This document shows, in pieces, positions 18,413 to 53,587 of a stretch of DNA of 64,000 bases. Position 1 is the stretch's first letter; every line of letters starts with the position of its first letter. Location: NCBI GenBank assembly GCA_040954595.2, contig CM082595.2:6102137-6166136 (forward strand), given 5' to 3'. This stretch comes from Balanoglossus misakiensis. Taxonomy: Eukaryota > Animalia > Hemichordata. The translations under genes were made by a program, and so were the position numbers. Below the pieces are notes generated by a model. That model saw nothing but the letters and a program-made list of their open reading frames with translations. It was not told the origin of the DNA and did not search any database.

Positions 18413-21400
18413 CTAAAGCTTTGTTTCAATCGTGTCCTGGTCCGCCACATCCTCCAGACTCCCGTTGGCCAAGTGGTTGGCCTGTTTCTCCTGGTCACTT
18501 TGGACCCCATCGGCCTTCGGTGGTTCGCCAGTTTCCCCCTTGGGACCGCAGCACACGTAGCCGAGAACAACAAGCAACAGGGCGAGTGACATCCAAGTAG
18601 CCACGTACAGCCCGACTTCCGACAGTAACTTAGCCAACTGCAGGAGAATAACAGTGGACACAATTCAAGACTGAAAGTACGCCCTCGTGCGTGGAATTAT
18701 TGTGTCACTATTTCCGCCACCATTGACATGTGTACACCATTACTATTCTACATTCCCATTAAGGTATACCTTCACCTATCAACACTTAGCCACAGTTATC
18801 ACGGAAAACTGCGGTCTAACCAATCACAGATTTTTGCGGAGTGGTCACGCGAAAACGTGTTACCACTATGTGGGTCTTCCAACGACTTTTACGATTAATA
18901 CGGCGATGATTTACTTTGAATGTTTTTTAACGTTGATACTCTTACTTAAATTAAAAGGATGGCACGTTTTAAAAATGTTGTCTTTATATGGATATTTCAA
19001 GATATGTTTTCAGGTATGGCGGCTAAGACGCAGTCATGTGTTTTCCTATTAAGGTTGTTCACGCATTAGTTTGCCCCCATGAGACTAGGCCAGCATGATG
19101 TATTGCTTGAATACCCACTTCTGCCAGTAAAGATTTGCACATAACTCAAAGAAGTGATTTTACAATCAGTTATACGCAATTTTGAGATACAAGGTTGAGA
19201 TGACTTCTCACTTACCGTGTACACCGGTATTTCTTCGATTTTCTGTTCCGTGAAATCGCGGAAGTACACTTCAAGGGACACAAGATTGTTCCTGTCAACA
19301 AACAAACAAAACAAAGTAAGACAAATGAACGGCATGTACACAGCAATCATTTGAAGAGTACAATGATACAGCAATGATTCTGAGAAAATGCCATTGTGTC
19401 AGTAAAAGTCCAAACAGATATGATTATCATTGATATTATTATATGGTTAGCGCATACACCACACATCTATAAACTTTCTCAGTTGAGTCTTGAAACTGAC
19501 AAAATCGATGAGTCATACATACCGAACACTCATCTCGTCAGACAGTGTCCATGTCTTGTCATTGGAGTAGTGCAATGAGTTCAGCAAGTGGGGAATGTAT
19601 ACAGGAGACGGCCAAGTAGTTTGTGTGGTTGATATTCTGTACTGAGTCTCACTGTAATTTAATTACAAGTAAAAAGTTGGAGTAGCATGGATGTACCTAT
19701 ACAAACTTAAAGTACCTTAAGTGGCCTCGGGGTTTACAAAAATTAAAAACACATTAAACGAGATCACAACAGATATTGTGTTTACCTGCAAGGTGGAGGG
19801 CAATGGCACTGTAAAATTCCCACTGCAGAAAAGTGCAACATCATCTGTCGACACATATCTGTCAAGAAGACAAAAATTGAATGTTACTTGTTAGATCGAC
19901 TGACTCGCCTTCATTACGAGAGATTGGAAAAGCATAGGGCAAACGAGCAATTACTTCGCATCTTTTTCGGTCGAACGACCGAGTAGACTTGTCTATTTGC
20001 TGCCGCATTTGGCTATTCCCCTCTCCCTATATGTATTGGAAATTTTACCTCGACTGATTTGCAGCGTTCATGAAAAGGATTGTGTCAATTTGTCATCCAG
20101 TTGCGGTTGGCACACGAGCGAATTTAAATCAATGGACAATCACATACTGAGAATCAGACTCACCTTGTGTGTGATTGCTTCTGTCGCACGTCATAGTAGT
20201 ATTATGGTCTGCCAAGGCATCGACACACCCACAATAATCTCGTAGATGTCTTCTCAAACACATCACTTCACAATCCTAAAATATGAACAAATAATATGAC
20301 GTGTACTTGACCAAAACATTTTGTGTTCTTGTTTTATCTTGTCGTCTCTGTGACGTAGGTGTTTCTTATTCAACTGTAGTAGTTACTATTTCTGGTATAA
20401 CCATTTTGTGTTCTTGTTTTATCTTGTCGTCTCTGTGACGTAGGTGTTTCTTATTCAACTGTAGTAGTTACTATTTCTGGTATAACCCATTACTGGATAA
20501 AAAACAATAATAGGTGCTATAATGTTTGTAATAATTCTCGACAATGTTATTAACATAATTGGAATGGAACACTATACATTAACAACAACCGGGCAAGTGT
20601 CGGAGAAAAAGAAAGATATTTCTACCTTGGTGCTTTCTGATGAGCATGCGCCAAACGGTTCTTCCAGCCGAGCTATTGTCATCTGTTGATGAAAAGTTAT
20701 ATTTAAGACACAGTTACCACCTGTGCCAGCACAGCTAATGAGGATTGCAAACTATAGCTGAAGTGTTACAAAGGCAATGTACAGATAAAAGATACATGTA
20801 CGTGTATTATAATCATTACTCAACTATAACGTTCTTGCAAGTTAAAGGTAACCGACCAAACATACATGTACTGCTGAGTATTTCCACCTCTTAGACAGCA
20901 ATTGATTATAAAAACCCGAAGCAAAACTATTTCGCATTCATCTGCTTGTAATTTCCATGCTTGTGTAGTTTGTATTCCTCACACAGTAGCCAAAGCAATC
21001 TGGATTAAGAACCTGATCTTACCCTTTCCATGGAAGCCGATGTCAGCATTCCCGGTGAAGCGTAGAATCCGTCTTTGTCGGGAAAAGGCTTCACTGCTCG
21101 ATCGTGGATTAATACTTTGAACCCCGTCTGACTCCCAGATATCCCTGTGTATTCGTGCAGCTCTGCCGACAACGTGAGTTTTAATCCTGCAATGATGTAA
21201 ACCGTGGTTGTTAATGGCAATGGAGTTATAAACTAAAAACGTATTACATGTATCATGATTGTGATACTTGGATAAACGTGATAGTATTAGACAACGATGG
21301 AGTCTGATCTTCAGGTGAACGAACTTTCACAATCGCACACGCAGTGCACCAAAAACATGGTCGCCAAATGTCTGTCTTTTCGCTGGTCAGCAGTAACTCG

Positions 21401-24394
21401 TTGATTGAAAAGGGAACTTCGATCCCGGTTATTTCTTTGGCTACGCTGTTTTTGTTTTTAAGATTATTTTGCGTTATTTTATTTAAAAAAAATAGTGAGT
21501 TAGTTTAGTGGAATCCGCGAAAATGTACTAAGTAAGACGATGATTCGTGTGAATATAAATATGTTAGGACTGGGTACGGCGACATCGTTACATTGACTCA
21601 CCATGTTCGGGCCCAGGCTTTCTCGCGGTCCTCTTGGTAACTGCACTCTCGTCGTTGAAAGTGAAACAATTGCCGAACTTTTCATGTTGAAACATTTCAA
21701 AATCCCTGCGGGTGAGAACAAATAATAACACGACATAAAAGTTACAGAACGTGTCACCCTCTCGTGCGCCTAATACCAGAAAATTTTGTCGTTTCCCATT
21801 CTCGTGCGGGGCATGATGCCGAAATAGTTATTAACTTTAAGGCGCTTACTCAGCTCCGCACGTCATGCCGCCATAGCTGCATTCAAAAATGAAGTCCTCT
21901 GCTTGGTGTCCCAGATCACGCATCTCGTCTGCAGTAATCGCCAGCGCAGCCCTGACGTCATCGAACGTTGGGGAGGCACTCGCCAGCAGCAGCGGAATCA
22001 AAGATGGCGGATCACCAGTTAACATCGACGCCAATACATTTGGCTTGTAAACATTTTCTCTGAAGTTCTCATAATACCGCCCGGTTCTGGTGACGTTGTG
22101 GTACGGCAGCGTCCAGTTCCCAACAAAGAGATCCAAAGTTGCATTTCCTGTGAAACAAAACAATTATATGTAAGTCATGTTAATCAGATTTAGACAGACA
22201 GAGACAGCACAGTCGGCCATGACAATAAACACAATGTTCTTACCAGTCTGCATGGGATAATCGCAACCTTCCTCATCCAAGCCATTCGGACACTGTTTTA
22301 TTCTATCACAAACAAAATATCCCGGGATGCAGTTCGTCTCCTCTGCATCACCACTGCACTGAAAGGTATCGTTCCCACAATCTAAAACGAAGAAACAAAT
22401 TTAAATGTCTGGAGTAAGTTTGCGGAAGATTGGTGGTGACGAACTAAATAATTTCATTAGAAAACGACGTTATACAGGTTTATATAGAAATGGACCAAAC
22501 AACTCTAAAACTTACAATACATTACAATATAAAGACAACAGTGACATGTTGATTATTCTCTCAGCTGAGCAATCAGAACTAATATATGTCATGTTATTGT
22601 TTTCAGCAACTGTTATTATGGGGAGTAAAACCGGGACAGCGTTAATATTTTATGATGATATATTGCAAATACATGTACCTGTTAAATAAGTACAGTTCTC
22701 TTCATCTGAAAAGTCGCCACAGTGATCGATGTAGTCGCAAACGAGTAATGAAGATATGCATTTCGAGTTGTTGCATACGAATGTGTCTTCGCCACAGAAT
22801 GTGTTGTCATCAGGTACAGGCCCTGGAAATGAACGCGTTAGAAATTCATGAATCAGGTAAATGTAAAAAAACTCAGGGTATGCAACAGTATGGAAAATAT
22901 TAATCTTTGAACAACATATTCCCCTTCCGTACAAATGATTTATCAATCCAAATACTAGTTTGTAAAAAAAGACGTGATTAGGATATTGAAAGTCTTGTCT
23001 CATGTTCCAATAATTTGTGTTGTCGCTCAGCCGTGACTTTTTTCTCTCTAAAGATACGCACTTGCCATGATAGACCCGTCGAGTCAGTCTAAATGCCTGA
23101 ACGCACCAGTAGTCCCGTTGTTTTAATAGTGTATCGTTAGTAACTTCTCACCTCCAGTTCTGGAACAGTTCCGCTCGTCTGCGCCGTTCCCGCAATCATC
23201 CACCCCATCGCACGCCATATACGACTTGACACATTCCGCCGCGTGCTCGTCACAGGAAACGTCCCCATGGAAACAAGGCCCTGCATTTCGATCAAAGAAA
23301 AAAAACCGTTGCATACAGCCTTTGTCGGTGAATTCTATCTCACATTGCAGCAACAGCGACTGGCGATCCCTTGTTCACTGACACAGCTAGGTTGACTCGC
23401 GTGGAATACGAATAACCGCATTTCACGTTACAGTAATTAATACATGGTTTATTCCCAAAATAGATGCCATTTTACCCTGTACCGTTGGGTTCGAGTTTTA
23501 TGAAAGCTGACACTGATGTTAGCGACTTTGGCATCCGAAGCAGAATTCGAACCATCTATTTTCAGACCTAGCTATAACGGAACGACTTCTCAGTTCAATA
23601 GCTAGGTTGCAAGTTTTTTGTTTGTTTGTTTAGACTGCTAGTTGGTGACGCACTTCAAGTCTGCATTCTTCCCATGTCGCAGTGAAAATAACGTGTGTCA
23701 TAAACACGTGCATACAATACAGCATGTTGGTCGGATCGTTGCAGTCTGAATATACGACTGACAGAGAGACGGACTCTCATGTACAGACATGTACATACCG
23801 GGTGTGTCACCACGATATAAAAAATCGTTGCGTTGTGAGTGCATAATCTGGCCCCCGATTAATGTGGTATACCTTTTTAAAGAAAATGGCATTTGACTCA
23901 CTAGTTTGAACATACCGCATTGACATTAAAACTGAACTCATATTGTTAACATTTAAATGTCGCATGAGAGTCCGAGATGAATTATGCAAGAATGCCACAC
24001 TGCACTCTTGCAAGGTCCAACTCTGGAAAGGAGGTACAAATTTACTTGGCGTTTAATACTACCCGCAGTTTGTTTGGAAAAGCGGTGTGTACTCACCGAT
24101 ATATGGCATCAAATTCGACAACCCGCCCGGCCTGTCCAACAGCAACAAGTCCCTGTATCGACTCGCCTCCATCGCCGACTTCCGGAATCTGTTGGTGTTG
24201 CACAGGGTTACCGCTGGAAACGGCACCTTCGCCGGCGTAACCATGGCGACGTGGACAGTCACGGGATATTCTAAATACCTGGGTATGTAGTAGGCGAGGC
24301 TTATCCCCACGGCCAGACCCACGCCGAAGAGACACACTGTCCAAAGCGCTCGGAACGCTTTGTGAAAACGACTGAATTCACTCTCGGTCGCCAT
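18413..24394 (-). CDS. DEG/ENaC (amiloride-sensitive sodium channel family) subunit with three LDLa repeats (648 aa, 13 exons)
   Basis: Exons: 24394-24097, 23280-23152, 22822-22679, 22381-22244, 22147-21850, 21705-21602, 21186-21023, 20682-20626, 20275-20164, 19858-19786, 19651-19523, 19291-19216, 18637-18413. All introns are GT-AG and the total is 1947 nt in frame. Motifs: TM1, YLEYPV, FPAVTLCNTN, GNCFTFN, GLKLTL, GFKVLIHD, CGC, CHCPPPC, WPS, LEVYF, TM2. Confidence 0.92.
20317..20486. repeat. Perfect 85-bp tandem duplication in an ENaC intron
   Basis: 20317-20401 is identical to 20402-20486. Confidence 0.9.
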
Positions 24395-27300
24395 CTTTGA
24401 AAATATGCAAAAACTGAAGACGTCTTCACACTCGCGAAGCTATCTTCCGCTCCCAGGATACATAAACATCATCCAAGTAGACCGAACTCGCTCGCTTCGG
24501 ATTGGCGACGGCGATGCCAACTCTGCAAAATAGAATCGTTTGTGTACATGTTGGTTTGATTTATGTGACAGGAACAGTTTCCAGCGTTTGCCCATAATTC
24601 ATACAATATTGTCAGAAAGGTAAAGGGTCATGAAATGGTGCTAGTAATTACGGTGGTATGCGGAGTTCGCTCTTGGGGGTTCAAATATGCTCGCTTGCGA
24701 CTCTGTATTCCGTTATATTTGCCGGAGCGTTTAACACTCCATAAGCTGCAACCTTCATCTATTTTTCAGTGGTCTGTTTTTACTGCGGTTTCTTATTCGC
24801 GTCTCAAAAGTACGACGAAGTACCCAGTGTACAAAGCTGATGGGCACACTAAAAATATGTGTGTTGTGTCATCATTGTAATCGTTGAAGGTTGACTGTGG
24901 AAGTCTGGACATTAACTCATTTATCATCGATAATAATGATTTTTGCTCGTACAATGTATGCGTGATCGACTGAAAAAAACAACATCATCTCGGCTGTTTG
25001 CACATCCTACTACAAGCCTGTTTATTCCGCGTCAGTCCGCTTCCAACAAAACTTAAAAACCAGTTAAGATATTCAAGACAACGACAGGGTACTCCGTATA
25101 GATTTATAAGGCACATTACATAAACTTATCCAACCTGCTTCCACCCCCTAACGTAATCTCATGGGATCAGTAAGGTTTCCATAGATACAAGTTCGCCTTC
25201 TATCCAGGCACACAATATAAAACGACCAGAATCCCTCTACGGTTTGAAACAATTGTACATACACATGCAATCACAATGACATGCATTTGTGCAATGTTTG
25301 AAAGAAAGTTGTGACTGTATAAAAGAGTCAGTGAAAGGATGACGTCGCTGTTGGCATTGACAACGGGACCTACCGCGACAGATCAGCAGCAGGATGACAC
25401 CGCATACTCGAAATTCGATTAAATTAGATAAATATTAAGAACACATGTCACATCAATATTATATGAGTAATTACACGGTACACGTGTTTATGTAATCAAC
25501 TCGAAAATATAAATAAATCGGCGGCTGATTTCTAAGAACCGAATTAAGCTTGAGTGTGACATATTGGCCCGATTGCATTTCACTCGGTTATATAGAATGT
25601 TGATTCTCTTTCTCTTAAGACGTTGCACCAACCTCATCGGGGTAATTAACCCATATGAACTGAAGGCGAATGCCAATGTCTACTGAATGCATCTTCTTGC
25701 GCAAAAAAAGAGATCACTCGGGTTTTGCGTTAATGGCCGTCAATTCGCCGGGTAGCAATAAATTTGAAGATGCCCTCACATGCCATAACGACTGTGTGTT
25801 AACTGTACACTTATCGCTAGTCTCAAGTGAAGAAACATGCGCTCACTTTGAGTGCTGGCCAATATGTGGTCAATATGCCTTCCCTTCCACCATATGGCGA
25901 AAATGTGTCACACACTTCCCCGTGGCACAGTCTGTAGGATGCACATCGTGTTGAAGTCAAAACATACCGACCTGGTACTTCACAGAAGACGCTTAGCTCC
26001 ACTTCGACTATCTTACCCTCCGTGACCTTTCCGGGCTGTTACAGAGAGTATGACGGTGTTCAGTACTATTCTAGATCAGATGTCGGTGGTGGATTGAAAA
26101 CAACGAGATCACGTGCTGTCCCAAGCAAGGCCAGGGGAGCCCGCTTTGTTTATAGAAATCTGGGGCTTAGCGGAATGTGTTGTGGGTAGACAATGTTTTG
26201 CTTCCAGGCACTGGTGTTGAAAACATACGAGGATTTTGAACGTTAGGAAGGGACAACAATGTGGAGATATACTGGGTCAATCCATGCAGGTCTGCACAAA
26301 AAGCTGTGTTATTCCTTAAACTCCTACTTTGTAAACTTTAATCATCGGTTCTTACAATTAATATACTAGTATAGACTGTAAGAACCGACGATCATTATTT
26401 TCCGGTTTGGAAGGACTAGTATATAAAATTCAATAATAATTTGTGTAGAAGTATCGACCTGCTCTGCGCCTGCGCTCGGCCCTATTGTCAACAACTGTTG
26501 AAATGAATATTGTCCTTGTGGGATTACCGTGCATGCAAGCTTTTTGTTCGAACTGTGTCTTGAAAGAAGGTTTAAAGCACTTTCGCGTTGTGCTCGAACA
26601 ATGGGCTGTTCATTGACGTCATAATTAAACTGGGACGAGGGGTTCTCACTCAACACCACGAACAAGGCGGTAGGCGCTACTTCCATAGTACAAGCACTCC
26701 TTCTAAGCTACCAAATCAATCTTTCTGAATGGAAAGTCCGCTCGGCCTCTGATAATGGAAATAACACAACACGTTTTGTCGTCCTTTGTACAAAACAGTC
26801 ATCCTGGGTTAGTGTGAATTGGTCAGTTGATTGGCCTACTATAAAAATAACGTCTGGGATTTAGCTTTGTTTTGTGTCTACATTTACATGTACCAAGATA
26901 TGCAGGTGCTTGTAACAATACAGTCTGCTTACGTCTGTACGTTATTGTGTGTTATGCAATTACTCGTACAATTCACATGAATTTGTTCAATCAATATAAA
27001 TAATTCGATAATCCGTGACTACGTCAGTCTCAAAAATATGAAAAAAGTACGGGTAGTGTATTTCAGCGAACTTCTGGTACCTGGTCTGTCCGTGGATGTA
27101 CCAGAAGTAAATCCATGTTCTATTAGACAGCACACATTTAATCTGTACATGTCAACATAACTTGGTACATATACACACATATATACCAACATAGTACATG
27201 TATAACTATGCTGTATCTCCCGCGAGTCTGAAGTCGCTTTTGTAAAACGACCGGAACAAATTATACGAACGGATATTTAATACATTATCCGGGAAATAAT

Positions 27301-30300
27301 TGGTCTAATTATGTTTACTTGGTTATACATGCACTGTTGCAGGCATGTAATATGGACCGCGGACGATGGATTAATTTTGCAACAGGGAGGAAATTGCCAA
27401 CGAAAGTCCCACAACACAGTCCCCGGAGTGTAAATTACATGCAATTTGCCCGATTCAACATGTTTTTGTATTCAGGTCACAATTACACTTAATGAAAGGA
27501 CCGACCACAACACAAGCGAAGGCCGGTCGCTGAGGGTTTTCAGCCAGGCAAACAATGACATCGAAGCGCAGGCAGACACCGAACAAGAGTTACTGTAATT
27601 CGTCCATTCTCATCCCGAGGACGTCATAGTTCAAGTTCACAGACTCCTAGTTAACACTTACCACTACGACTTACTTCGGATACTATGTCTGAGTTCAGAT
27701 CATGCCGCTGTCACTCTATATCTGCACACAGCCTGCTTAGCTTCAATTCAGATTACAGTTACGCTTCGGGCTCTTAATATGCAAATACTATAATGCCGCA
27801 TTTGTCTTCTTATGCAAATCGACGCGTGGTCTAATTTTAGAGGGCCACCACGCCCATATACACAGTGCTGAACTTTCATGCTGGTATAAGAAAGCTCGGT
27901 TTGTTTAATAATAAAGGTTTTATAAATGTTCACAAGCTCTTCACGTCACGACAACAAAATATTAGTATGTACACATGTAGGCGCGACTGACTATTGGCTT
28001 CGACCAAGACCAAGCGTTATTACATGTATGTGTATACTCAGTTGCAATTGAACTCGCTGATGGTGTGAGAAAACCTCGAAATTCCCGGATGATCACATTG
28101 CAGGGACTCGAGGCGATTTACAAAACAAACTACAAAATTGAAAGTCAAAATAATTCAGATTCGGCTTCAAAATTATGAGATACACTTCATCCAATACCTT
28201 GCTTAGATCTTAAATCTTCAAGGAGGCCTTATTTGAAGCAGGTTTCATCTTCTCACTTCAACGAGCTGCACTCTCTCGCTTACCATCCACGCATCGACGC
28301 CAACAGCCGTAAAGTGTGTGTGGATTATCAACAAATAATTACATCGTTAACCTTGCTGATCCGTCCCTATCCGCCGTTACATTCCACGGCATTCCCTCTC
28401 GGTTCAACTAACAACCCAAAAACAGGAATAAATAGATGAGAACACCCATGTGAGAAGAACCAGGCGGAAAGAATTAATTCTCTGCCGAAAAACCAACATA
28501 TGACCTTATCGTCGCCATTGACAATATTATTCTCCATATCTCATTGCATGACCCCGTCTACTGACGATTTCAACACTTTCTTCCAACTCCCTCGCCACAA
28601 TATCACAAGCTATTGGGAATTAAGTATTCGAATTCATGAAAACTAACTAGTTTACTTAAGGAAAGAGGGGCACACACGGTTATTACACAACATACATGCA
28701 CCTATGCATTTTCCAATTCAACTACAATAACTGCCCATCTTCAAAAGCAAGACACACAATTGATACCAGTACAGACACAGTAATACTAGACATCCTCTTC
28801 AACAAAGACCAACACACAATACACAAGGCATCAATAACATGTAGGAATGACACGTTAAAACAACAGGACAACCAATTTACCAAAAAGAGACTGAATCAGT
28901 GACTGTGGTGATACGAAAACCCTGCACAATATCACCACAAGCCCTGTACGCCCCAATCAAACAAAAATCACTCGTTTTGTTTAAAGCATGTGTACAGCGC
29001 CACCAGACACCTAACAAACTTCTGACTCTAAACTCACTCCTGATGCTATAGATTTTCCTATGGTGAAAATATCTGAACAGTTCTATCAAAAATCAAGCAC
29101 GGTGACATATTAGTTTCTTTATATCATTTGATTATACTTTTGGTTGGCACCTTTCGTGAAAATATCAAGAAAATTACAATTTTGTAACACAGTTTTCTCA
29201 CAATTCTACATGTAAGGCTGCGGAATGCGATAACCATGCACTGCATCTGGGTAGTCTGCCATCTACCTCAACTTGTTCTGGCTTGCTTTAAACATTGACA
29301 GATGACTTATAGCGGTGCTCTTTTGAACGGCATCTCTCGCATTCCCTGTTTCCGTTAATGTCGTCGTTTTGTAACAACTCGTGACGAGGATTCTCGCGCG
29401 ATTCTCATGATATCCATGGCAACGTATGTATGCGCGGAGAGGTACGGATCTCTCTAACTTCCATTTTCGTCGATTGTCAAAAAACAGCTTTTGATGGATA
29501 ACGGAGGGCGTGCAATTATCACCCGTTTTTCGAATAACTACACGCTAATTTGCGTGGCATATGATTTAACACGCGCAGGCGATTATTTATGGCATGGTCC
29601 CATCGTATGTTTTATGGGGGAAGATTTGGCTATCTTTCATTATTGCGCAACTGTCAATTAACATGCGTAAGTTTAGTAAACCCACGATCTAAAACAAAGG
29701 TGTGTTTTTTTATTTATCCTTTCGCTGTCATTAAAAGACAAGTCTTGTCCAGTCTAACCATTAGGAAGAAAACATGGAATTTTCCAATGATCCAATAGAC
29801 ATACACCAATGGATTTCAAAACAAAAATACAAGAAAATTCAGGTTTTTTCGTCATACATGTCTCAGTCGGAGGGTCTACAATACTGCCAGTAAACGGTGA
29901 ATGTATGAGATGCGCAAATATTAATGATAACCTGCTGGCGTTTGTTTTCACGGATGAAAACGATGCACCGTTTGAATCATTGATTATTTTCATTTCTGGG
30001 TGGAAAAAACTTGTATCTAGCAGAGGTTCGCGTTTTGAATAATACATATCCAAATTTACGACGTGAACAACCTCGTACATTCTACCGTCACGGAAGTATA
30101 CACGACCTTATGGACGTGGATGTGCCTGGCTATTGTGCCTCCGCCGGCCGTATGGTGTTATTGCCAACCCGGGGTCATTATAATCAAATTTGTTACAAGC
30201 TTAACATGGCTCCCTTTCAGAGCCCACCTTTTCTTCATATCAGATATACCCTCTTTGTCATTCGCGATTCGCGAGCACTCTTGGTAGATGCGACCGCATT

Positions 30301-31074
30301 GACGGCAGGTGAGTATGTCTCTCTTGTCTCGAAGCACTTTTTTCCAAGAAACAACTTTCATTTGAACTGACCCTCCCATTAACAAGTTAGCTACAAATTT
30401 GACAGCGCACCCTTTGATGTTCATAATATGAATCGTATCATGCATGCGAACTGCTATCATTGTTGATAGTGTTGACATTTGCATTCACGTCCGTCCCGAG
30501 TGATGAAATTCTGGTCACTTTTGCGAGGTGCCCGAATACTACCGGTAGTAGATGTAGGATAGTGGTGGTTCTGAGAGCATACCAAGAAGTCATACACTGC
30601 ACAAAACTATCGGAAACTTATACCAAAAATTCCAGTGTTCTGAATAGTCAGAACATGCGTTTACTTTGCAATAAAACCGTTTCAGATTTCTTTGGAGTGG
30701 ACAACGACCATCAAACGATACCACTTCAGTGAACAAATTTTAGTCACGGCTAAAAACTTTGGTCATTCGGATATGCTTATGATACGACGATGGAATGACG
30801 TTAAGCAAACTACCACATCAACTTTCGTTTAGTCTTATCGTTATTTTCCGATTTTTTCCATCATCAATACTAGATCTATATCACCCATAACTAAAACTAG
30901 ATTCTACCAATGATAGTCACGGTATTATAATGTTTACACGCCATTCTGTAGGTAATGCTTGTACAGCAGATAACCAGGCATGTAGCTGATGCGAAAGGTA
31001 TCTTACGTCTCCCCACCCCTTTCTCCATCTCCGTCTCATAGAACAGAATCCCTTCCAACACAAACGGCGTTAAT

Positions 31075-34000
31075 ATGCTTAGTTTGAGATGTTTGATGGT
31101 GCTTATTGGAATGGCAATCAATAATAGCGATGGTCAAGAAGCCCCTCTCTACCAACCCGACGCCTCAGTCTCCATTGGTATCTCAAACAGGTACATGGTA
31201 ATCCTAAAACAGGTACGTCACTCATTATCAGGAAAACAGGCGCATGGATTAATTTATCTTACTAAATTATTTGCAGTACATTTGGCATTGGGTATTCGGC
31301 ACGCGTGTCTGGTTACCACTAACAGTACTGTAATCTAGTGACATCTACATTCCGCATATTAGGCCAAATTATGTTCGGACTACTTCAAGTTTACGAAATT
31401 TCCCTTTTCCTATGTATCTAATAGTTCATTATTAGATTTCCTAAAACATGGTGAAATGTAAATATTTTTTCGACACAGCCTTTACATCCATATGGACACT
31501 GATGGTATTGTTACAAATGATATTCCGCATATACAAATATTTTCGTAATCGGAGCAGTGATTACTGCCGTGTTAACACATCGCACCTCAAGCATATGAAC
31601 ATGCCATGTATTATCACAAAAAATGAAGTAGCATTCGAGGCAAAGAAAACATAAAGAAGGGAAACCACAGCCACAAAGGTATGACTCCATTCTATTTGTC
31701 CTTCTGCAGGAATACAGTGTTTCCAAGCTTCTGAGCGTGGCTGCCAGGACTGCCAGCCAGGCGGACAACATCGGCAGTTTTGTGGCCATCGAACGACTCT
31801 TTGAAAACCTCTTTCTGGGGTTCAGCGCCGAGATGGATGATCAGACTCTGGCAATGGTGAGTGTTCGTGAGTTTATGATCAGAGGAAATATTAATTTGAT
31901 ATCTAATTATCTTTGATATCCACTTCTGCCATCGCGATTTTAATCAAGACAATACTCGGGTCACTGTAAATAGTTAACGTTAGAAAACCTCAAGGTACTC
32001 CAAAAGTACACACTAGTAAGAATTTGGCAGAATATAAACAAAACCAGGAAGTGAGTGAAGTACTAAAGCCATTACCCTAAAGCTAACCCCAACCCATAGT
32101 ATGACTATCGAACAATAGGAAAACAATGAACAAATGTCGTAATATTAATGCACTTTTGACCACTGCAAAAAGTGTAAAACAAACCTATTTATATACTTCA
32201 TCTCCCTCAAACCTTTCTGTCTGTTAAATGTTATTTTAAAGACGAAATAGTTAATGTCCACACACACATATACGGAGACCGTTCCCACACTCACCACTGG
32301 CTGACTTTAGCAACACCAGCTTAGGGTTTACAAAACAAGAGCTTTTTTATTGAAAAAAACACCAATATTAACATAAATAAACAGGATACCCGTAAGAAAC
32401 AGGTGGAAAATAAAAACGTATACAGCATAAAATATAAACGCCACTTAAAAACGCTCACGCAACTCACAGTCACATATCCTGCTGGAATCAGTAGCGGAGA
32501 AAGTTTTGCACATGCGCAGTCCGGACCGGATAAGCTGCCAGAATGCGTGGGTGGCTATTTTTTGAAATGGCGATCAACTGTGGGGTTGGAAATTTCCATA
32601 AATAATCTGGAAAAATCGCAATCGAGTCAAAAACTAACGTAAAACCCCGAAACTGGGGAAGAAAGTCCCAAACGATACATAAATACAGTCGATTGACATT
32701 CAAATCTACGTAGATGAGAGAAATTTATCCAAAGCAATGCAGACGACGGAGGTGAAGTGTTTCAGCCACGCGGTACGCAGGAAATTAAAGTTTGGCAGAA
32801 ATTTCACAAGGGAAGATCGCGATCGGGACCGCTAACCAAGCAAAAACAAACTCCGCTGGTATACCCTGGCTTGGCTATGACTCCTAAAATACGACAATTC
32901 TCGATTCCCGCTTTTCTATGCCCAAGAAAAGCACCCACGCCGCTGTTGCGAAATCCACTGTCGCGGTCGCAATTGCGCAATAATTTTAGCCACGCACGTG
33001 TGCTCGGGATCTGGACAACATCAATCGACCGTCCCAAGTCGATCACGCCCGGATCGCAGCAAAAACTAGCAAGCGCGATTGCAGTGATTCGCCGAATTAA
33101 TTTTACTGACCTTATATGAAGCTTGAATATCGCTGTAAACTCATCTGAACGAACTACAAGCGCAATTTCCATAGCATCAGTCGGAGCTCCGAGAAACACA
33201 TCCATCTTCGCCCCAGTCCAGCCAGCAGAGTGTAATCCATTCTCAGTCTAGGGGTGGCAGGATGGTCCGCTGATCTTCCATAGGGGTGCGTTTTCACAAA
33301 TTCACATAATTTTACTTTCACTGCACCTTTCAGGGGAATGGACTGTTCCACTGGTGATATGACCATCGTGCACTGGTGTTCTGATGTACAAAATACATGT
33401 ATACTATTTTGAACATCGCCTCACCGTTATATGATGCAATAAACTATTGTCACAGATAGCACCCTGTAATATGAACTTTTCTGAGAATTCCAAAGGGTCT
33501 GATCATGCGGTCAAAATTAGGCATGGAACCGGCTTCACAGTCTGTCTTGAAACTTTGTTCTTCATTCCACAGGTCAGATCTTACCAAGAGGTCGAGTATG
33601 TTGAACAGGATGTACGCCTTGAGACACAGACCACACCCTCACACCTTGACAGGATAGATCAACGCAGTTCTGTCTTAGACGGAAATCCATATTCACCTCT
33701 AAGTAAGGCAATTTTAGTGAACAAGCGTGTGAATGCCAATTTTCCATTACAGATTTTTAATTATGACAGTTGGTGTAAAAGAACTTATACGACTTACTTT
33801 AAAAATCATGTCTCATGAAATCACCGCGCTTCTGAAACTGATAACTATAACACTATACAGAAGTAATGTTTCACACGTGCCAAGTTGCTGAAACTTTTTC
33901 ACAATCTTTTTCTTGCAGATTTCTTTTGTTCATTTCGTTCGTCAACTCGTCAATCTTGTGCTACTTATTAATATTGTGACGTTACTTAGTAACCCTTTCT

Positions 34001-34623
34001 CTGTTAACATCAGTTAAGTTAAGACATAACAATGGAATTGTTATCACGGTGGTGTTTGGTCTGTGAGAATACCGATGTACGTGTATTGTTTAGAACAGAC
34101 AGACAGTGAGAGAGACAGACAGACAAAATCATACACCATGAAATGATTTTCTTTCTCAAGATAACGCCGAAGGTGTAGGGGTATACATCGTGGATACTGG
34201 TATCAAAGGAGATCACGAAGAAGTTGCAGGCAGGGTCAACTTCGTACCTGATGAAAGCGAACGGTGTGATTTTATGCAGGTGAGGGAGGATTTCTAGTTG
34301 TTGTTTTTGTGATAAACCAGAAGACTTTAACTCTCAATACTTGCCACATGCAAGAAATAATACCATTAATTATGTATTAAACATTATTTCTTACAACTGT
34401 CGTGGAATCAAATTTTAGTTTTTCTTTTCTGTATAGGGACAATCGGCCGAAGTTCCCCTTGAACAAATTTGCGGTTTCCATGGCACCGGCATGGCTGCCC
34501 TGGTCGGCGGAAAACAATATGGTGTTGCCAAAAACGTCTCCTTGTATGATGTGCGTGTTTTGGTTGGACGGTGTTACTCCGGAGATCATTTTCTGAGCCA
34601 AGCGATTCACGGTAATTTCCGAA

Positions 34624-34660
<37 letters not shown>

Positions 34661-34731
34661 GTCAGTTAGTCAGTCTATCAATCGATCAATCAATAAGCCA
34701 GAGTCAGATTCAAGCAATCAATCAATCAGAC

Positions 34732-34770
<39 letters not shown>

Positions 34771-36233
34771 CTTAATCAATCGAGCAATCAGTCAATCAAT
34801 CAATCACTTACAACAAATCATATACATTATTCTTTTATATGAATTATTTAATATTCTTTTCTTTTAATTTGAAAGAAAACGTTTCACTTGGCCACTGGCT
34901 TCGTGTGATTTGGCTACAAAAAGGCACACTCCCTGGCTTCCCTAACTGGATTCTTTTGTTTTCACTCAGGTCTTGACATGATCGTTCACCACAGCGTTCA
35001 CCCAGCCGTCATTTTGATGCCTTTCGGTACATCACAGGCGTACCAGTCGGTTAGTTTGACGGCTGCCACGGAGGTCTTGCACGGTCTCGGCTTCACACAA
35101 GTTGCGGCTGCTGGGGAAATTGGTGATGCGTGTAACAATCTGTTTGGCAACGCCCAAAATGTGAGTTGATTTTGATACAACTGGAAATTGTTTTACTCTC
35201 CCTCTCCATGTGCGCGTGTGTCTGTCTGTCAGTATATCCGTATGTCTGTCTGTCTGTATGTATGCATGTATGTATGTATGTATCATATGTATGTATGTAT
35301 GTATGTGTGTATGTATGTATGTATGTATGTATGTATGTATGTATGTATGTACATGTATGTATGTATGTATGTATGTATGTATGTATGTATGTATGTATGT
35401 ATGTATGTATGTATGTATGTATGTATGTATGTATGTATGTATGTATGTATGTATGTATGTATGAATGTTGTCCGACATACTTGTATTTGTTGAATTCCAA
35501 TGTCAAACTATCAGGCCAAATTTAACTATCAACATGTTTATACTGGTGCATTATATGGAACTTGCAGGTGATAAAGTCAGCACGAATGGCAGCAATGTCG
35601 TCAGCTGATATGTATATAGTTGGCAGTACCGGTCAGTGTGTTGACCTGTTCGCACCTGCCGAGGGGGTGACTACGGCTGACACAGCATCCCCAACGGCGA
35701 CCAGGGTTGTCTCGGGTAGCTCTGTCTCTGCTGCTATTGTTGCAGGTAGGTGTTCGCTTGGTTGGGTCAGAAAAGTTCTTCTCCCTGTCATATATACATT
35801 AAAGGTCCCCCATGGAAAATTAGCTATAGTTACCATGGCAAAATGAGATCTAGCCAATCACAGATTTTCATTGGGTGGCACACGCGAAAAAAAAGAGCGC
35901 AACCATATGTTCTTTAGAACACTGAAATGCTCCATTTCAGCCATATGAGGGTGTATGTACATTGGAGGTGACTGTATACCTTTAACAGATCTCAAGCTGT
36001 TTCAAGCTGCCTTGTAACTATGGCGCAAGATTTTTGCATCTGACGCTGTTTTATCTTTGCTCTCTTCTTGTAAAGGTGTTGCTGCAGCTATCTTAGCAGA
36101 CGACCCATCGCTCTCCCCGAGCGAGGTCAGGGACAGACTGCTGGCAGGCGCCACCATGGACACCATTGCACCCATCTCGCCCATGTTACCAGGGACACCA
36201 AACAGAATGGCCTATGTGGGAAGCGATCTCTAA
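31075..36233 (+). CDS. Secreted S8 subtilase, proteinase K/aqualysin/PCSK9-like, with I9 prodomain (411 aa, 8 exons)
   Basis: Exons: 31075-31212, 31710-31856, 33573-33702, 34161-34279, 34437-34611, 34970-35160, 35568-35745, 36076-36233 (1236 nt in frame). Signal peptide; I9 motifs YMVILK, GFSAEM and VEYVEQD; then LDRIDQR, VYIVDTGI (Asp), HGTGMA (His), YGVAK, CVDLFAP, SGSS (Ser) and GTPNR. Confidence 0.92.
34626..34806. repeat. Imperfect (TCAA)n microsatellite
   Basis: Direct observation; intronic. Confidence 0.9.
35219..35464. repeat. (TCTG)n/(TATG)n microsatellite
   Basis: Direct observation; intronic. Confidence 0.95.
35799..35985. mobile_element. Family B MITE copy in the last intron of the subtilase gene
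   Basis: Shares the core and the right end ggaggtgactgtatacctttaa with 42763-42948. Confidence 0.75.
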
Positions 36234-37486
36234 TGAGACACCTTGTGATGGCCAGGATTCCAATGTACCGTACTCTCTGTGATGTTATAAGCAACACGAC
36301 GATTCAGAAGACTAAGCATTGCAAAAAACAAAACCAGCAAATAACTTTATAAAGCCTGAAGCTTTCCTCACAGCAAAAAGTGGAACCATTCGCAGTTGTA
36401 CAAACACAACATGCATGTTTAGTTAACTGTGTGCACATCCCCCCGTCAAGACGTGGTTTCTAAATCCCTGAGTACAGACGAAAAATTATATGAATCAAGC
36501 TTCTGTTGAGTACATTAATGCAACAGTATATTTTATATTCAAATAATTAAACTAATTTCCAAGCCTGCTGTCAAAATTTTAAAATACTTGATTCCGTTCA
36601 AGACTGCCATTGCTATTGTCTTGGAATTCAAACCAGAGTTGTAATTGACTGCTGATGTCACGCTATCCAATGCACGTGGCAGACCCAAGTAAAATAAACA
36701 AACATTTTTTTTGTTTTAATTGTTCTGAATCACTGACTTGCTTTTAATTTGGTTTAACTGTTGAAGCAAGAGTGACACTGCCAAATGCTACAGGTTTCCA
36801 TTAAGGAATTTGAAAACACGATATCTATGACATCATAGGTCATCTGAGGTCAGGGTGCAAAGGGTTAACACTGTGGAGTCTACAGAGTACAAACAATATC
36901 ACTTGCAAGGGAATGGTTTTCGTTCAGATAGACATATTAAAGTCTGTGTAATTTGCAAACAAGCTTGGTGTTTATTTTCAACTGGAATTAATATGTTCTT
37001 TACAAATGCTCTGTTGTGTTAAATTACATGTACAAAGAGATCTATTCAAGCCTTTTGCCACTGCAACTAAATCCAACTCTATAATATTCTATGATAGAAC
37101 TGGTCCAGTACGTTGGCAAATCAGGGGAGAGGGCTAAGCAACACTGAGCCCTTGAAAACAGTACATTAATGTTCATGTCGATGCTTCTTGTACAATAGTG
37201 ATACATGTACATGCACCCCTACTTTCAAATGGTTTGGCCTTCCTCGCCACAGAAAATATAGAGTTCAGTGAATCACTCCACATATATGAAGGGATAGATG
37301 CGTTAGAATTATAGCTGTAATGCTATTTCCCTCTTTAAAAAATCTTGCAAATTGTCCAGTACTGCACACCACACATTAACACAAGTATGATCAAAGTTGA
37401 ATCCAGCTCCACACTACACAGTCAGGGCATAGACATTCAATCACATTCTAGGAAAGTCTTTAAAAAAGTTGTTTGGATTCTAAATT

Positions 37487-38767
37487 TCACTCTTGCTTTT
37501 GCATCACCTGTAAAAAAAGAAAAATAACAAAATTCTTGTCAGGTAATGTCTTAGTATCTAATAACAGAAGCATTTTTCTGGAATGAGTGACACATATTGT
37601 TTGAGGCTTTTAACCCTTTCACCACCGTGGTTTGGTCTTGATCCATTGTTTTCAATGGTAAAGTTGGACCTCTACAGAGGGAAATGGGGTGAATGGGTTA
37701 AAGGTCCCGGATAATCAAAACATGGTAATTCTGTGTTAATGGGCCATGGGGGTTTAGCTGCATTTTGAATTCAGCATGCAAATTCCCACATATTGGTGCA
37801 TACTTTCTAATGCGCTTGTTGTCGGACAAAATAAAAACGTGTAAAACTATATGGTTAATTTGAAATGTGTAAGTACTACCCCTTTTCTCACCTTGACTAG
37901 TTTTCCTCTAAGTGAAAACGGATCTCGAAATTCATGCTGGCAATTTGCATAACCTATACCCAGACCTACACCAGTGCCAAATGCCACTGGCCATGTTTTC
38001 CCTGTAGAAAGAAATGAACAGAAAATTAATAACAGCAATTGAATAATGTTGGAGGGTTAGTCGTTGGTATCACTATATGTGTTGTGTGGAAAATCGTAGT
38101 GTACACCATAAAAAGAGCTCAAATATTTTACCTAGCTCAAGATGACATAACCTCTCGCAACACTGTTTGTGTGCACAAGTACATCGAAAGACGTCCACTG
38201 ACACTCTATAAGGGTCAATCACTTGTGACACCTATTATACCAGGATTTGTACTCCGATATAGCATTTCACATGTCTCCCTTCAAATAGGCAAAGTGGTGT
38301 ACTTACTTTTGAAAAGAAAAACTGAAAATACAACACCCAGGCCAAGTCCAGCCCCTGTAATGGAAGAAAACAATAGTCACGTTTAAAGTGCTGTCGACAG
38401 AGTGCTGAGTACATAACATACAGTGAGTGAGACTTTCCAGCACACGTGCCTGTGAAGCGATCAGCCTGAAGACAGAACCAACCAAATCCAATGATCCATT
38501 AGTGGCATTCGGAGGGCCTTGTCGCATGCACGTAGGCCTTGTACTTTGCAAGTGCACATTCAAGCTGTCTGCTGTCACCGACCGACGGTGTCTTCTGCCT
38601 AATATCAACAGATCGGCTCACAAATTTGCAAAAACTAACGGACAAGTGTTAAAGTATTATACACTCCTCACAACAAGCCACTTACCGGTTTTCACAAGCG
38701 TGTCATATATACACTGGTCCCATTTTATTCCGAGCTGGTCCTCGCTTCTTGCTTCGCTTTCCGCCAT
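37487..38767 (-). CDS. MICOS10: MICOS complex subunit Mic10 (86 aa, 4 exons)
   Basis: Exons 38767-38686, 38354-38307, 38001-37892, 37507-37487 give MAESEARSEDQLGIKWDQCIYDTLVKTGAGLGLGVVFSVFLFKRKTWPVAFGTGVGLGIGYANCQHEFRDP..., with the Mic10 GxGxGxG motifs and basic loop. Confidence 0.95.
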
Positions 38768-39194
38768 GTTGAAATTAAGTGGGATGTGCGCATGTGTAGA
38801 TCTTGCACTAGCAGACGGACTAAACGAAGAATAAAGTTAAATTGACTTACACCAAATTATGAATATAAATCATCCATTTATAATTAAATTTAATGTTTAT
38901 TTAATCACTTAAGAGGATATTTACTCGGTTTGATGAGAGAAATAAGTATATATTCGACTGTATCGATGATGACCTGAGGTAACCCCAAAAGGTCACACTG
39001 GGGTCACAGTAGAGTCACATGACGAAACAGAGTCATGTGCATTACGGAAGTCCCCTTTCGTTAAAACTTGTGGGAGTGTTCGTCAACTTTTGCGCCGGTA
39101 TATCGCTCTCCTCTCCAAATACCCGAAGATCATTATGTAAAATCATACATAGGAGCTGGCTAACTGGTTCGTAGCGTCTTGCGTTCAAGCAAAA
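38768..39194. promoter_or_regulatory. Putative bidirectional housekeeping promoter between MICOS10 and the membrane-protein gene
   Basis: There are 427 bp between divergent ATGs (38767 and 39195). The interval holds an ETS-like CGGAAG(T) near 39045, TGCGCA near 38787 and AGGTCA/TGACCT half-sites, and both starts sit in YY1-like AANATGGC contexts. Confidence 0.5.
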
Positions 39195-41681
39195 ATGGCT
39201 GAATCTGACGACCAAAAGATCACGTTCGCCGATTTAGGAGTGACTCCGAGGGAAGCAACGACCGATTCCTATTTTGGCAAGGTATTGTACTCTTCCCATT
39301 TCCTGCTTTTATAGTTTGGCGAGTAAATAAGTTTGGCAGCCAAAAATCTAAGAATCACATCAACAATTTCAAAAATACCAAAATACCAGAACCTTGAACT
39401 TAGATTAATAGATCATGTTTGTGATGAAGACGAACTTTATCTGTTGATAAACTGATACAGTACATAGGATACACGTACGTCTTCCCACGTGTTCTAAACC
39501 TTATATCCAAACACTCACAAAGATATAAATTTTATCAATAGAAAATCCATCATACACCTGCCCCATATATATCCTGATAACAGGCTTTCAAAACGGCGGG
39601 GCATTGACAGACATGACCTCGTCCGTGGCATTGACATAGCTTGACCTCATTTGACCCACGCAGTCTATTGCCATACTCAAGTTATTAAATCCCGATATAT
39701 CATTATTTTCCATCTTTTTCTGAGCACGACAAGATTTGTCGTGAGTCATATGGGTTTTAGGTCAGACTCAGCCCTATGCATTGAAACCAAAACTGAAACT
39801 GTATTAAAATGGCTGTGACGGCGGAAATACCTTATTCTTTACAGTTTCACTCCCAGTCTTTGTTCTGTGAAAATTTGAATTCGGGGTTGGATCACAAATC
39901 CATTTACTTGTCCAACTTTGTCTGTAGACTAGGTAACTTGCTTACAAGTCTATGGGCTTAATTATGTCATAAATCATAATTCAGCCAAATATGTCACTCA
40001 AGGCCACAAACACCACAGCCACCACTGTCGGCCAGGGCTCGAACCCACGACGAGTCCACTGCACCAACCACTGGACTATGATGCCCCTATTATTCCATTA
40101 TTTCTTTTTTTTTCACAGAGAAGAAAGTACTCAGATCTAGACAGATGGGAAATTGTCTTTTTGGTGATATCTCTGATCGGTCTCCTAGCAACCATTGGTC
40201 TCACCATCGAAAGGATCATCAGCGTTACTGGTGTGGACTTTACCTTTGCTGTACTCATATTGATCAACTCTGGTAAGTCCTGGTTAACTCTGGTTAGTTA
40301 ACTCTGGTTAGTATTCATTTTGTGAGACAATGGCTCTGTCACTAAAAGTATTTCCTTTAAGTTTCACCCTTTCAACACCATGGTTTGGTCCAATTCCATT
40401 GTTTTCTATGGTAAACGTGGACCTCAATACAGGAAACTAAGGGTGAAAGGGTTAAACTTGTCACCGAAGAAAATGTGAGTGACATCATTCATAGGTCACC
40501 GTTGGGTGTGGGGGTGCAGTCTGCCCATTTGTCAAACCCATGGTTTGGTCCCACTCCATCCTGAATGGCAGTGCTGGACCTCTACATGGGGAAATAGGGG
40601 TGGAAGGGTTAATAAAATGGTTATATTTGAAGGCGGTACTTAGCAATTAATTTCACTAACCCTCTTCCTTCTTTTCTGTTATTTTCAGTGTTTGTTGTGT
40701 ATTACGCCCTGGATGGAGTCTTCCGAGAGCGAGCCTATGAGTTGATTGTTTTTATCATCGCTGTGTGCATAATCATTGCCTACTGCATCATCAATTTTAT
40801 TGGCACGCATGACGAACATGCTAAACATGATATAGTGAAACTGGTAAGTTTTGCACATTATTTGTATAAGCAGGAGTAACACTGGTAACTCAAAAGCAAA
40901 AATAATGGGAATCTTGTACTAATGATATATCACACAGTTTTGTAGGTTCATAGGAGTTTGTTTGTTAGTCATGGTCCAACTGGCTCTAGTTGTTTTGCTT
41001 TTTGGACACATTACTTCCAACAGATGCAAACTATTTGGCAACAAATGTGAGTGATGTTGTTAACTCATTCATTGCCATGGTTTGGTCCAAATCCATTGTT
41101 TTCTTTAATAAAGTTGGACCTGTACAAAGAGGAAAGGGGAGAGTTAATTCACCAAGTTATTGCAATGATCCTTCAGCCCAGGGCTGCTTTAAAGCCAATC
41201 CCTTTCCTTTACAAGTAATAGATGATGCTTTTTGTGTGTGTATGTCCGCACTTTTACACTATGGATTGTCATCGTGTCTGCATTTGTTTACTTCCAGACT
41301 CGACTTGTCCTGGTGATTGTGCTCGGTCCGTTTACAGTTGTACTGGGAGTCGTGTTGGCCAAGCGGTACCATGAGTCACGAAATCTCATTTTCAGAACAG
41401 TTGGGGCCAACACTGAGCTGCAAGGTAAGCATGGATGACTGTACCGACTTCGATGGCGAAATACAGATGAACTTTGACCCAGGTCACAGGGTCAAATGTC
41501 ATGTAATTAGTATATATGGGAAATGAGCTGAAATATTTTTTTTAAAGCACACATTGTTTATCATGAGCGTTGATTGCTTTTGTCTTTTAGACATGTGTGA
41601 TCAGATGTTTTTGTTTGAAGCTCTCTTGAAGTTGGATCTTCAGCTTGTGGTAAGAATGCTTCTTTGTCTTTCTGTGCTCAG

Positions 41682-47020: not shown

Positions 47021-47070
47021 CCTCTCCGACAACACAGATGTCTTAGTGTTGTGGTGCATCACAGAACAGG

Positions 47071-53000: not shown

Positions 53001-53491
53001 CCTCAAACGCTCTACACATGGAAATGAAGTTCCAAAGTCCTGGCTCAGGCATAAAATGTCACCAAGTATCAATCTTCTCACAGTTTCTATATCCTATTTT
53101 TGATTGTCACAATTTTATTGGTATGGTTCATTTCAGGTGTTCTCAGGACGAGACCTTAGTTCGTTTTGAAAATAACGAACGCTTGCGTGAGACGTTTGCC
53201 ATTGAAGCATTCCGCTTCCGTGCTCGTGAAGTTGGTAACCTGGTAAATATAAACTGCAATTTTGTCTCCTTCGCTTCTTCATTCCCGGTATATTCCGTGT
53301 GTTGTTACCAACAGTTTCGTGTTTTTTCGTGAATGAATTACTAGTATCCTTACCAATAAATCTCCATCTCGCTCGTTGGCACACTTTTTCATATTTACAA
53401 AAAATATAGGCAGCGAAAAATTAGAGTTGAGTTTGGCTTGAGCAGCATAGCTGACTACGTTGATAAGTCGATCCGATTGTATTTGGTTTGT

Positions 53492-53587
<96 letters not shown>

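Follow-up and report, generated by a model that had tools for sequence, protein, structure and literature searches.

Can a DEG/ENaC subunit lose its pore and persist as something other than a channel? The question is raised by a gene on the minus strand of a 64,000-nucleotide stretch of the genome of the acorn worm Balanoglossus misakiensis (GCA_040954595.2, contig CM082595.2, positions 6,102,137 to 6,166,136 of the forward strand), the whole of which is referred to here as the window. The gene encodes a DEG/ENaC-family subunit with three low-density lipoprotein receptor class A (LDLa) repeats in its extracellular part. A preliminary description of the same DNA had presented it as a channel fused to receptor modules and gated or regulated by an extracellular protein ligand. 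The chimera is real, but that description overlooked the absence of the HG loop and of five conserved pore residues in the second transmembrane helix (TM2), and with these gone a self-standing gated sodium channel becomes less likely. We propose, with a probability of about one half, that the product is a non-conducting accessory subunit that co-assembles with intact LDLa-bearing paralogues and tunes them. By fold and descent it belongs to the DEG/ENaC family; the HG and pore motifs of a conducting member are missing from it.

A DEG/ENaC subunit by fold

The gene is predicted to have 13 exons, which join into a stop-free frame of 648 amino acids (aa), with its ATG at 24394 and its stop codon at 18413. 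The hydropathy maxima of the protein, at aa 16 and 586, mark two transmembrane helices (TM1 and TM2) flanking a large ectodomain. Pfam ASC is found above cut-off in exons 1 and 7, and at 200 bits in P0151, an orthologue from Ptychodera flava. The ectodomain retains all 14 core cysteines and all 18 LDLa cysteines, 32 in all.

An AlphaFold model of one chain of P0151, which is 57% identical to the window protein, was made from a 90-row alignment (pLDDT 87.5, pTM 0.76). It has three ordered LDLa repeats with flexible linkers at residues 143-149 and 232-237, and is similar to FaNaC (Z 31.6, root-mean-square deviation 4.0, 388 residues aligned), ENaC beta (Z 30.7, 4.1, 349) and ASIC1a (Z 29.8, 3.2, 358). 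The palm, thumb and finger are predicted to be normal, and TM2, a single helix spanning residues 567-601 of the model, to be straight and without a re-entrant loop. The ESM Atlas gave no feature match, and its structure matches were LDL-receptor-like only, at template-modelling scores below 0.35.

A rewritten pore

The HG loop and the GAS belt are regarded as near-universal in DEG/ENaC proteins. TM2 positions take their numbers from human ENaC alpha and gamma, with P0008, an LDLa-free sea-urchin relative, as the link. The comparison covers the 44 of 90 aligned rows with a full TM2, that is, 40 other relatives (including four near-duplicate pairs) and four orthologue rows (including one pair). 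Gly 3', Gly 6' and Gly 10' are kept in 40/40 of the other relatives, and Ser 12' and Glu 18' in 39/40. The four orthologue rows and the window protein, which together make up the altered-pore group, keep none of the five. The replacements in the group are Leu, Val or Ala at 3', Ala at 6', Ser or Thr at 10', Ala or Phe at 12' and Leu or Ile at 18'; the window protein itself has Leu 3', Ala 6', Ser-Leu-Ala at 10'-12' and Leu 18', and no charged TM2 residue below 0'. In an alternative alignment the change takes the form of a gap of two residues, and the G-x-S motif is missing in both readings. The rewritten helix has a pattern of its own, with Gly 2', Ala 6' and Ser/Thr 10' each present in all five members; an acidic 0' residue is found in all five as well.

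The HG motif is missing from the predicted N-terminus. The start Met of the window protein occupies the position of the HG His, 17 residues ahead of the Trp that precedes TM1; all three complete orthologues have just 17-18 residues before this Trp, and none has HG. A search of the minus strand from 24395 to 40000 revealed no HG-like motif. Yoder and Gouaux, in their account of the belt, describe the GAS belt as buttressed by the HG loop (PMC7308080), so the loss of both belongs together and is structurally coherent.

The passages of Lynagh et al. on these residues report that ASIC1a homomers carrying G10'A/S, S12'A or E18'A are non-functional, and that current still passes through concatemers in which S12'A is present in one or two of the subunits (PMC5449180). 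According to the pore description in a 2026 paper, D0' and G3' make up the tightest constriction when ASIC1a is closed (PMC13468109). The gate glycine has given way to Leu, Val or Ala, and homomeric ASIC1a is silenced by single mutations in the GAS motif; a homotrimer of altered-pore subunits would therefore probably be shut or nearly shut. Mixed trimers may tolerate one or two copies, with lowered conductance and Na+ selectivity.

The same helix can be read as a rebuilt pore. In the pore description just cited, a straight TM2 without re-entrant loop in human ASIC1a is assigned to an open, low-selectivity state (PMC13468109), and the centipede channel PDPNaC1 is reported, in the part of the paper dealing with its motifs, to conduct without HG, yet with its GAS motif retained (PMC12714832). 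These two cases make a poorly selective channel the main rival: a working homotrimer, or a pairing of paralogues, with a rebuilt straight TM2 that is opened or shut through the LDLa cap, which amounts to the model of the preliminary description plus a new pore. The intact gating machinery of the ectodomain, the small residues along one face of TM2 and the invariant acid at 0' speak for it. Against it, the G3' of the tightest constriction has become Leu, Val or Ala, charge is lacking below 0' in the window protein, and three changes, each of which silences homomeric ASIC1a, occur together (PMC5449180). We consider a working channel of this kind unlikely.

The ASIC1a open state and PDPNaC1 also weigh against a non-conducting accessory subunit, as do several further points. 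The straight TM2 comes from a one-chain model and may arise for the model's own reasons, and the ASIC1a mutants are single changes in one channel that may not transfer to a co-evolved helix. The fold is also that of PAC chloride channels (Z 12-13), which conduct through a different pore design. Ser is found at 10' in human ENaC gamma, and the loss of HG alone is less distinctive, since 8 of 32 other LDLa-bearing rows are without H-G/A/C. An AG directly 5' of the ATG could serve as the acceptor for an upstream coding exon. The two types of Ptychodera paralogue could pair together rather than with intact subunits, and the C-terminal Thr-x-Leu/Phe, considered below as an anchor, ends only three of the four full tails.

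Gene model and exon layout

All 12 introns of the gene are GT-AG. Its features, in window coordinates, are these:

24395..24522 (-): putative 5' untranslated stretch of the first coding exon, with an upstream open reading frame; a second possible acceptor abuts the ATG
24097..24394 (-): exon 1, aa 1-99, with the Met at the HG-His position, TM1 (~24367-24272), FPAVTLCN (24220-24197) and helix alpha1; Pfam ASC 52.4 bits
23152..23280 (-): exon 2, LDLa repeat 1, aa 102-138, homologous by position to the first repeat of the family; phase 1-1, Pfam match
22679..22822 (-): exon 3, LDLa repeat 2, aa 152-186; phase 1-1, Pfam match
22244..22381 (-): exon 4, LDLa repeat 3, aa 192-230; phase 1-1, Pfam match
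21850..22147 (-): exon 5, strand beta3 and finger helices particular to the family
21602..21705 (-): exon 6, beta-ball with GNCF motif
21023..21186 (-): exon 7, palm and beta-ball strands; Pfam ASC 28.2 bits
20626..20682 (-): exon 8, strand beta9 and thumb base; collinear with the orthologues
20164..20275 (-): exon 9, Cys-rich part of the thumb
19786..19858 (-): exon 10, helix of the thumb with its final cysteines
19523..19651 (-): exon 11, strand beta10 and knuckle
19216..19291 (-): exon 12, strands beta11-beta12 to the pre-TM2 Tyr
18413..18637 (-): exon 13, altered TM2, post-TM2 Cys-Cys, short tail ending Thr-Lys-Leu, stop
TM2 residues within exon 13 (-): Leu 3' at 18610-18608, Ala 6' at 18601-18599, Ser-Leu-Ala 10'-12' at 18589-18581, Leu 18' at 18565-18563

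The preliminary description had recognized three exons encoding one six-cysteine LDLa module each, and their coordinates, phases and peptides were borne out. The exons (129, 144 and 138 nt) are each phase 1-1 and bordered by AG/GT, and the DNA alone predicts that omission of one, several or all three leaves the frame intact. Upstream of the gene's start ATG, an in-frame TAG lies 16 codons away, and an in-frame open reading frame of 10 codons (24472-24440, minus strand) has three ATGs, the first at 24472, and a TAG stop before the main ATG. This upstream frame might damp translation or could be the relic of a lost N-terminus.

Exon 13 alone gave no match to solved DEG/ENaC structures at E up to 10 and no match to Pfam ASC. 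A word-based search with exon 5 was likewise without a match, the search being insensitive here, since P0001 holds that region. No second copy of the gene was found within the window. Intron 8 contains a direct repeat of ~70 bases in two copies (~20340-20480).

Orthologues and descent

RefSeq models from two other acorn worms, P. flava (XP_070549820 and XP_070561192) and Saccoglossus kowalevskii (XP_002737666), also carry these three repeats, and at the corresponding position. XP_070549820 is 75% identical over exon 1 and collinear across the junctions 24097/23280, 23152/22822, 22679/22381 and 22244/22147. Overall identity between the window protein and its orthologues is 46-66%, and the split of the species compared is put at ~370 million years.

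A tree of 40 channel cores unites the window protein with Saccoglossus XP_002737666 and with Ptychodera paralogues of two types in a group supported at 100/100, within which the window protein is nearer to Ptychodera than to Saccoglossus (99/95). The group stands on a long stem branch (0.94 changes per column) and is nested among intact LDLa channels; its sister branch is weakly supported (90/42). Intact paralogues are present in both Ptychodera and Saccoglossus. When the TM1, TM2, HG and LDLa columns are left out, the altered-pore group persists with a Shimodaira-Hasegawa-like approximate likelihood ratio (SH-aLRT) support of 99 for three rows. Near-duplicates (P0152, P0154, P0155, P0156, P0158, P0161 and P0162), poorly aligned rows (P0136 and P0023) and fragments short of the channel core were left out of the trees; the second tree was also built without the window protein, P0004 and five more rows.

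The long stem branch bears on a further explanation, namely that the gene is a decaying duplicate or a mis-joined model whose protein is not made as modelled. One Ptychodera model ending at 345 aa and another without an N-terminus would fit this. The intact 13-exon frame, its uniformly canonical introns, the full-length orthologues in two other species and the complete set of ectodomain cysteines do not, and we judge decay very improbable. As far as sequences can tell, the 648-aa frame, the cysteines, the degree of identity and the shared new TM2 pattern all argue that this is not decay. A pseudogene was rejected on the intact frame and the kept cysteines.

A family of channels with LDLa repeats

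Channels fused to LDLa repeats are not special to this gene: the chimera stands, and the insertion is old and common. A profile search with exon 1 gave 588 matches, of which the best 150 were inspected; LDLa repeats were called with a profile of our own that was partly built from these proteins. Repeats were found in 36 of these 150, and in 34 of the 75 that reach at least 90 residues beyond the FPAVT motif. Among 30 family proteins chosen for length or repeats, Pfam verified LDLa in 26. The LDLa channels among these 150 carry 1-12 repeats, often together with CUB, kringle, PAN, F5/8, SRCR or TSP1 domains. They include members from the acorn worms Ptychodera, Saccoglossus and Glandiceps and the starfish Acanthaster and Patiria. 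The architectures of Saccoglossus members with several LDLa repeats plus PAN and kringle were verified with Pfam, and a relative from a lancelet lacks LDLa and carries F5/8 and kringle domains.

In the tree of channel cores, one group with support of 99/98 has LDLa in 19 of 19 rows. The altered-pore gene is nested within this group and shares its first repeat: repeat 1 of the orthologues best matches the first repeat in 19 of 23 relatives, and repeats 2 and 3 have no fixed counterpart. Because of the group-wide presence of LDLa and the shared first repeat, the insertion is likely to predate the split between acorn worms and starfish, as judged from these alignments. A recent arrival of the LDLa exons by shuffling was rejected for this gene, repeat 1 being the family's first repeat.

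Three other proteins of the search deserve mention. P0057 and P0106 have one LDLa plus CUB in the same slot, lack HG and lie outside the 99/98 group; their LDLa is possibly a separate acquisition. P0027 (Saccoglossus XP_006824359) has two LDLa repeats and a short N-terminus without HG, and its record ends ahead of TM2.

The LDLa cassette and its possible roles

The three repeats score 29.9, 41.6 and 28.9 bits with Pfam Ldl_recept_a (PF00057; cut-off 24.1), and the six-cysteine LDLa pattern occurs three times in the window versus 0 in 100 shuffles of 3-base blocks. The cassette had been placed directly after FPAVTLCN (aa 59-66); it in fact begins at aa 102, ~35 residues further on and beyond helix alpha1. 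Its assignment to the finger region that holds the inhibitory tracts of ENaC was correct. With the alignment routed through P0008, the helix ahead of the cassette aligns to human ENaC alpha as far as residue 152, and the two match again from strand beta3 (residue 276) onwards. The GRIP domain is located between alpha1 and alpha2 in the structural description of Noreng et al. (PMC6197857), so the cassette fills the GRIP slot.

No R-x-K/R-R site and no PY motif were found in the window protein, and its three minimal R-x-x-R sites include none common to the orthologues. Furin release of the cassette was rejected because there is no R-x-K/R-R site.

Repeats of the LDLR family use a Trp to grip ligand lysines. 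Scored against consensus patterns for this Trp and for the calcium cage, the acidic cage is complete in repeat 1 (4/4) and reduced in repeats 2 and 3 (3/4 each), whereas the preliminary description had called the calcium motif near-canonical in repeat 2 and degenerate in repeat 3. All 11 repeats examined from the orthologues have 3/4 acids, as do 13 of the 14 repeats of the whole group, so that the full four-acid cage occurs only in repeat 1 of the window protein (1/14). The ligand-site Trp is found in 0/14 repeats of the orthologue group and is also rare in the rest of the family, where 19 of 156 repeats matched by pattern have it. Its absence weakens the earlier proposal of gating by a protein ligand; with neither this Trp nor an R-x-K/R-R site, the protein lends no support to classical lipoprotein-type binding or to furin release of the ENaC type.

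The tails of the orthologue group are 15-44 residues long and without a PY motif. A post-TM2 Cys-Cys pair is present in all four, and a C-terminal Thr-x-Leu/Phe in three of the four full tails; judged by consensus, we take these to resemble lipidation and PDZ-binding signals.

These features allow a third alternative, in which the protein is a receptor or an adhesion scaffold of channel ancestry. Its homotrimer would have a closed helix bundle and display nine LDLa repeats that capture an extracellular protein or matrix; its tail would signal or cluster, and it would not contribute to ion flow. The lost pore motifs, the conserved tail signals and LDLa repeats 1-2, which are as conserved as the core (in each repeat, 20-26 of 31-39 positions are identical), are in its favour. 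The absence of the ligand-site Trp, the rarity of a full acidic cage, the short tails without PY and the retention of the thumb and wrist, which a pure display scaffold does not clearly need, are not. A scaffold without channel partners seems to us quite improbable.

An accessory subunit would make use of the same parts in other ways. The LDLa cap may rest on the finger and thumb in the stead of GRIP, without furin release. Repeat 1 would be a fixed structural part, and repeats 2 and 3 calcium-stiffened surfaces for a putative extracellular partner. The Cys-Cys pair and the C-terminal Thr-x-Leu/Phe could anchor or cluster the complex.

Comparison with known systems

Vertebrate ENaC (with subunits alpha, beta, gamma, delta, of clade B; PDB 6WTH and 9BLR) shares with the window protein the fold and an extra domain between alpha1 and alpha2, and is the best-scoring solved channel for relatives of the LDLa family. 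It differs in that the extra domain is GRIP, with polybasic sites, and that a PY motif is present; the window protein has its three LDLa repeats and neither R-x-K/R-R nor PY. Every ENaC subunit compared has HG and G/S-x-S, both of which are missing here. No solved protein combining ASC and LDLa was found among the PDB matches.

A further comparison is with the uncharacterised LDLa-bearing ENaC-like relatives such as Saccoglossus XP_077865926, Ptychodera XP_070548202, Acanthaster XP_022096860, Patiria XP_038045203 and Glandiceps XP_077983148, which share the 99/98 group, the first LDLa and the finger helices. In contrast to the window protein, they retain HG in most cases, and G3', G6' and G10' are present in 18 of 18 LDLa-bearing rows. 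They also have 3-12 LDLa repeats, often with CUB, kringle, PAN, F5/8, SRCR or TSP1, whereas the window gene has just three LDLa.

Outside the family, NETO1/2 and LEV-10 are LDLa-bearing auxiliary subunits of ligand-gated channels, and polycystin-1 is a module-bearing partner of polycystin-2. Together with the GluD receptors, we take these to be analogues in the way they work, as poorly conducting or non-conducting partners that regulate or cluster a channel. They belong to unrelated families, and the window gene differs in having its modules fused into the channel subunit itself.

The nearest named precedent for a DEG/ENaC fused to modules is C. elegans EGAS ('EGF plus ASC domain'). EGAS-1 to -4 are DEG/ENaC proteins fused to Cys-rich extracellular repeats, which are EGF rather than LDLa, and the section on their expression reports them as silent when expressed alone (PMC10424705). 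Centipede PDPNaC1 has the same fold (Z 16.5) and no canonical HG; it differs in keeping GAS and the pore glycines and in conducting, and the published account of its motifs reports no LDLa (PMC12714832).

Novelty and significance

Known gating stimuli of DEG/ENaC channels include protons, peptides, proteases and force. Open-access full-text literature, searched without supplements and subscription journals, gave no description of LDLa-bearing or pore-less DEG/ENaCs. The excerpts of main text from the phylogeny papers PMC8791634, PMC9822975, PMC10507113 and PMC9234716 contain neither 'LDL' nor 'lipoprotein', and that of PMC9949801 does not contain 'lipoprotein'. Uncharacterised ambulacrarian channels of clade B are mentioned in one of these phylogeny papers. 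The LDLa architecture is already visible in public annotation and is therefore less surprising; the conserved pore-less branch is the new point.

A bolder statement may be made tentatively, and we hold it to be somewhat doubtful: that the DEG/ENaC family has here its first natural branch with a dead pore, a lineage of acorn worms that has lost HG and rewritten every pore-lining residue of TM2 together and has kept the whole gating ectodomain. It would be a dedicated LDLa receptor subunit giving extracellular proteins control over partner channels, within a large unstudied family in which shuffled receptor modules land in the GRIP slot.

A lineage that lacks HG and GAS and is kept by at least three species of acorn worm offers a natural way to test whether a straight, loop-less TM2 is open and unselective or shut. 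A GRIP slot filled by LDLa, CUB, kringle, PAN or F5/8 bears on the origin of the regulatory domain of ENaC, and on the possible gating of DEG/ENaC channels by protein ligands or matrix. At 648 aa, the window protein is among the smallest of its family and practical to express, chimerise and solve.

Other features of the window

Three further features of the window, all on the plus strand, were noted:

5455-6189 (+): open frame of 245 codons, coding-like acidic sequence without a Pfam match
~47050-54300 (+): zona pellucida (ZP) domain gene, with ZP-N at 51640-51840, ZP-N/ZP-C at 52231-52764 and a likely transmembrane segment at ~54148-54303
58627-60033 (+): intronless open reading frame of 468 aa, with Pfam PapA_C above cut-off and a weak match to Condensation

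The first is likely to be an exon of another gene. The last would be a bacterial-style acyltransferase in an animal genome, possibly the result of an old horizontal transfer.

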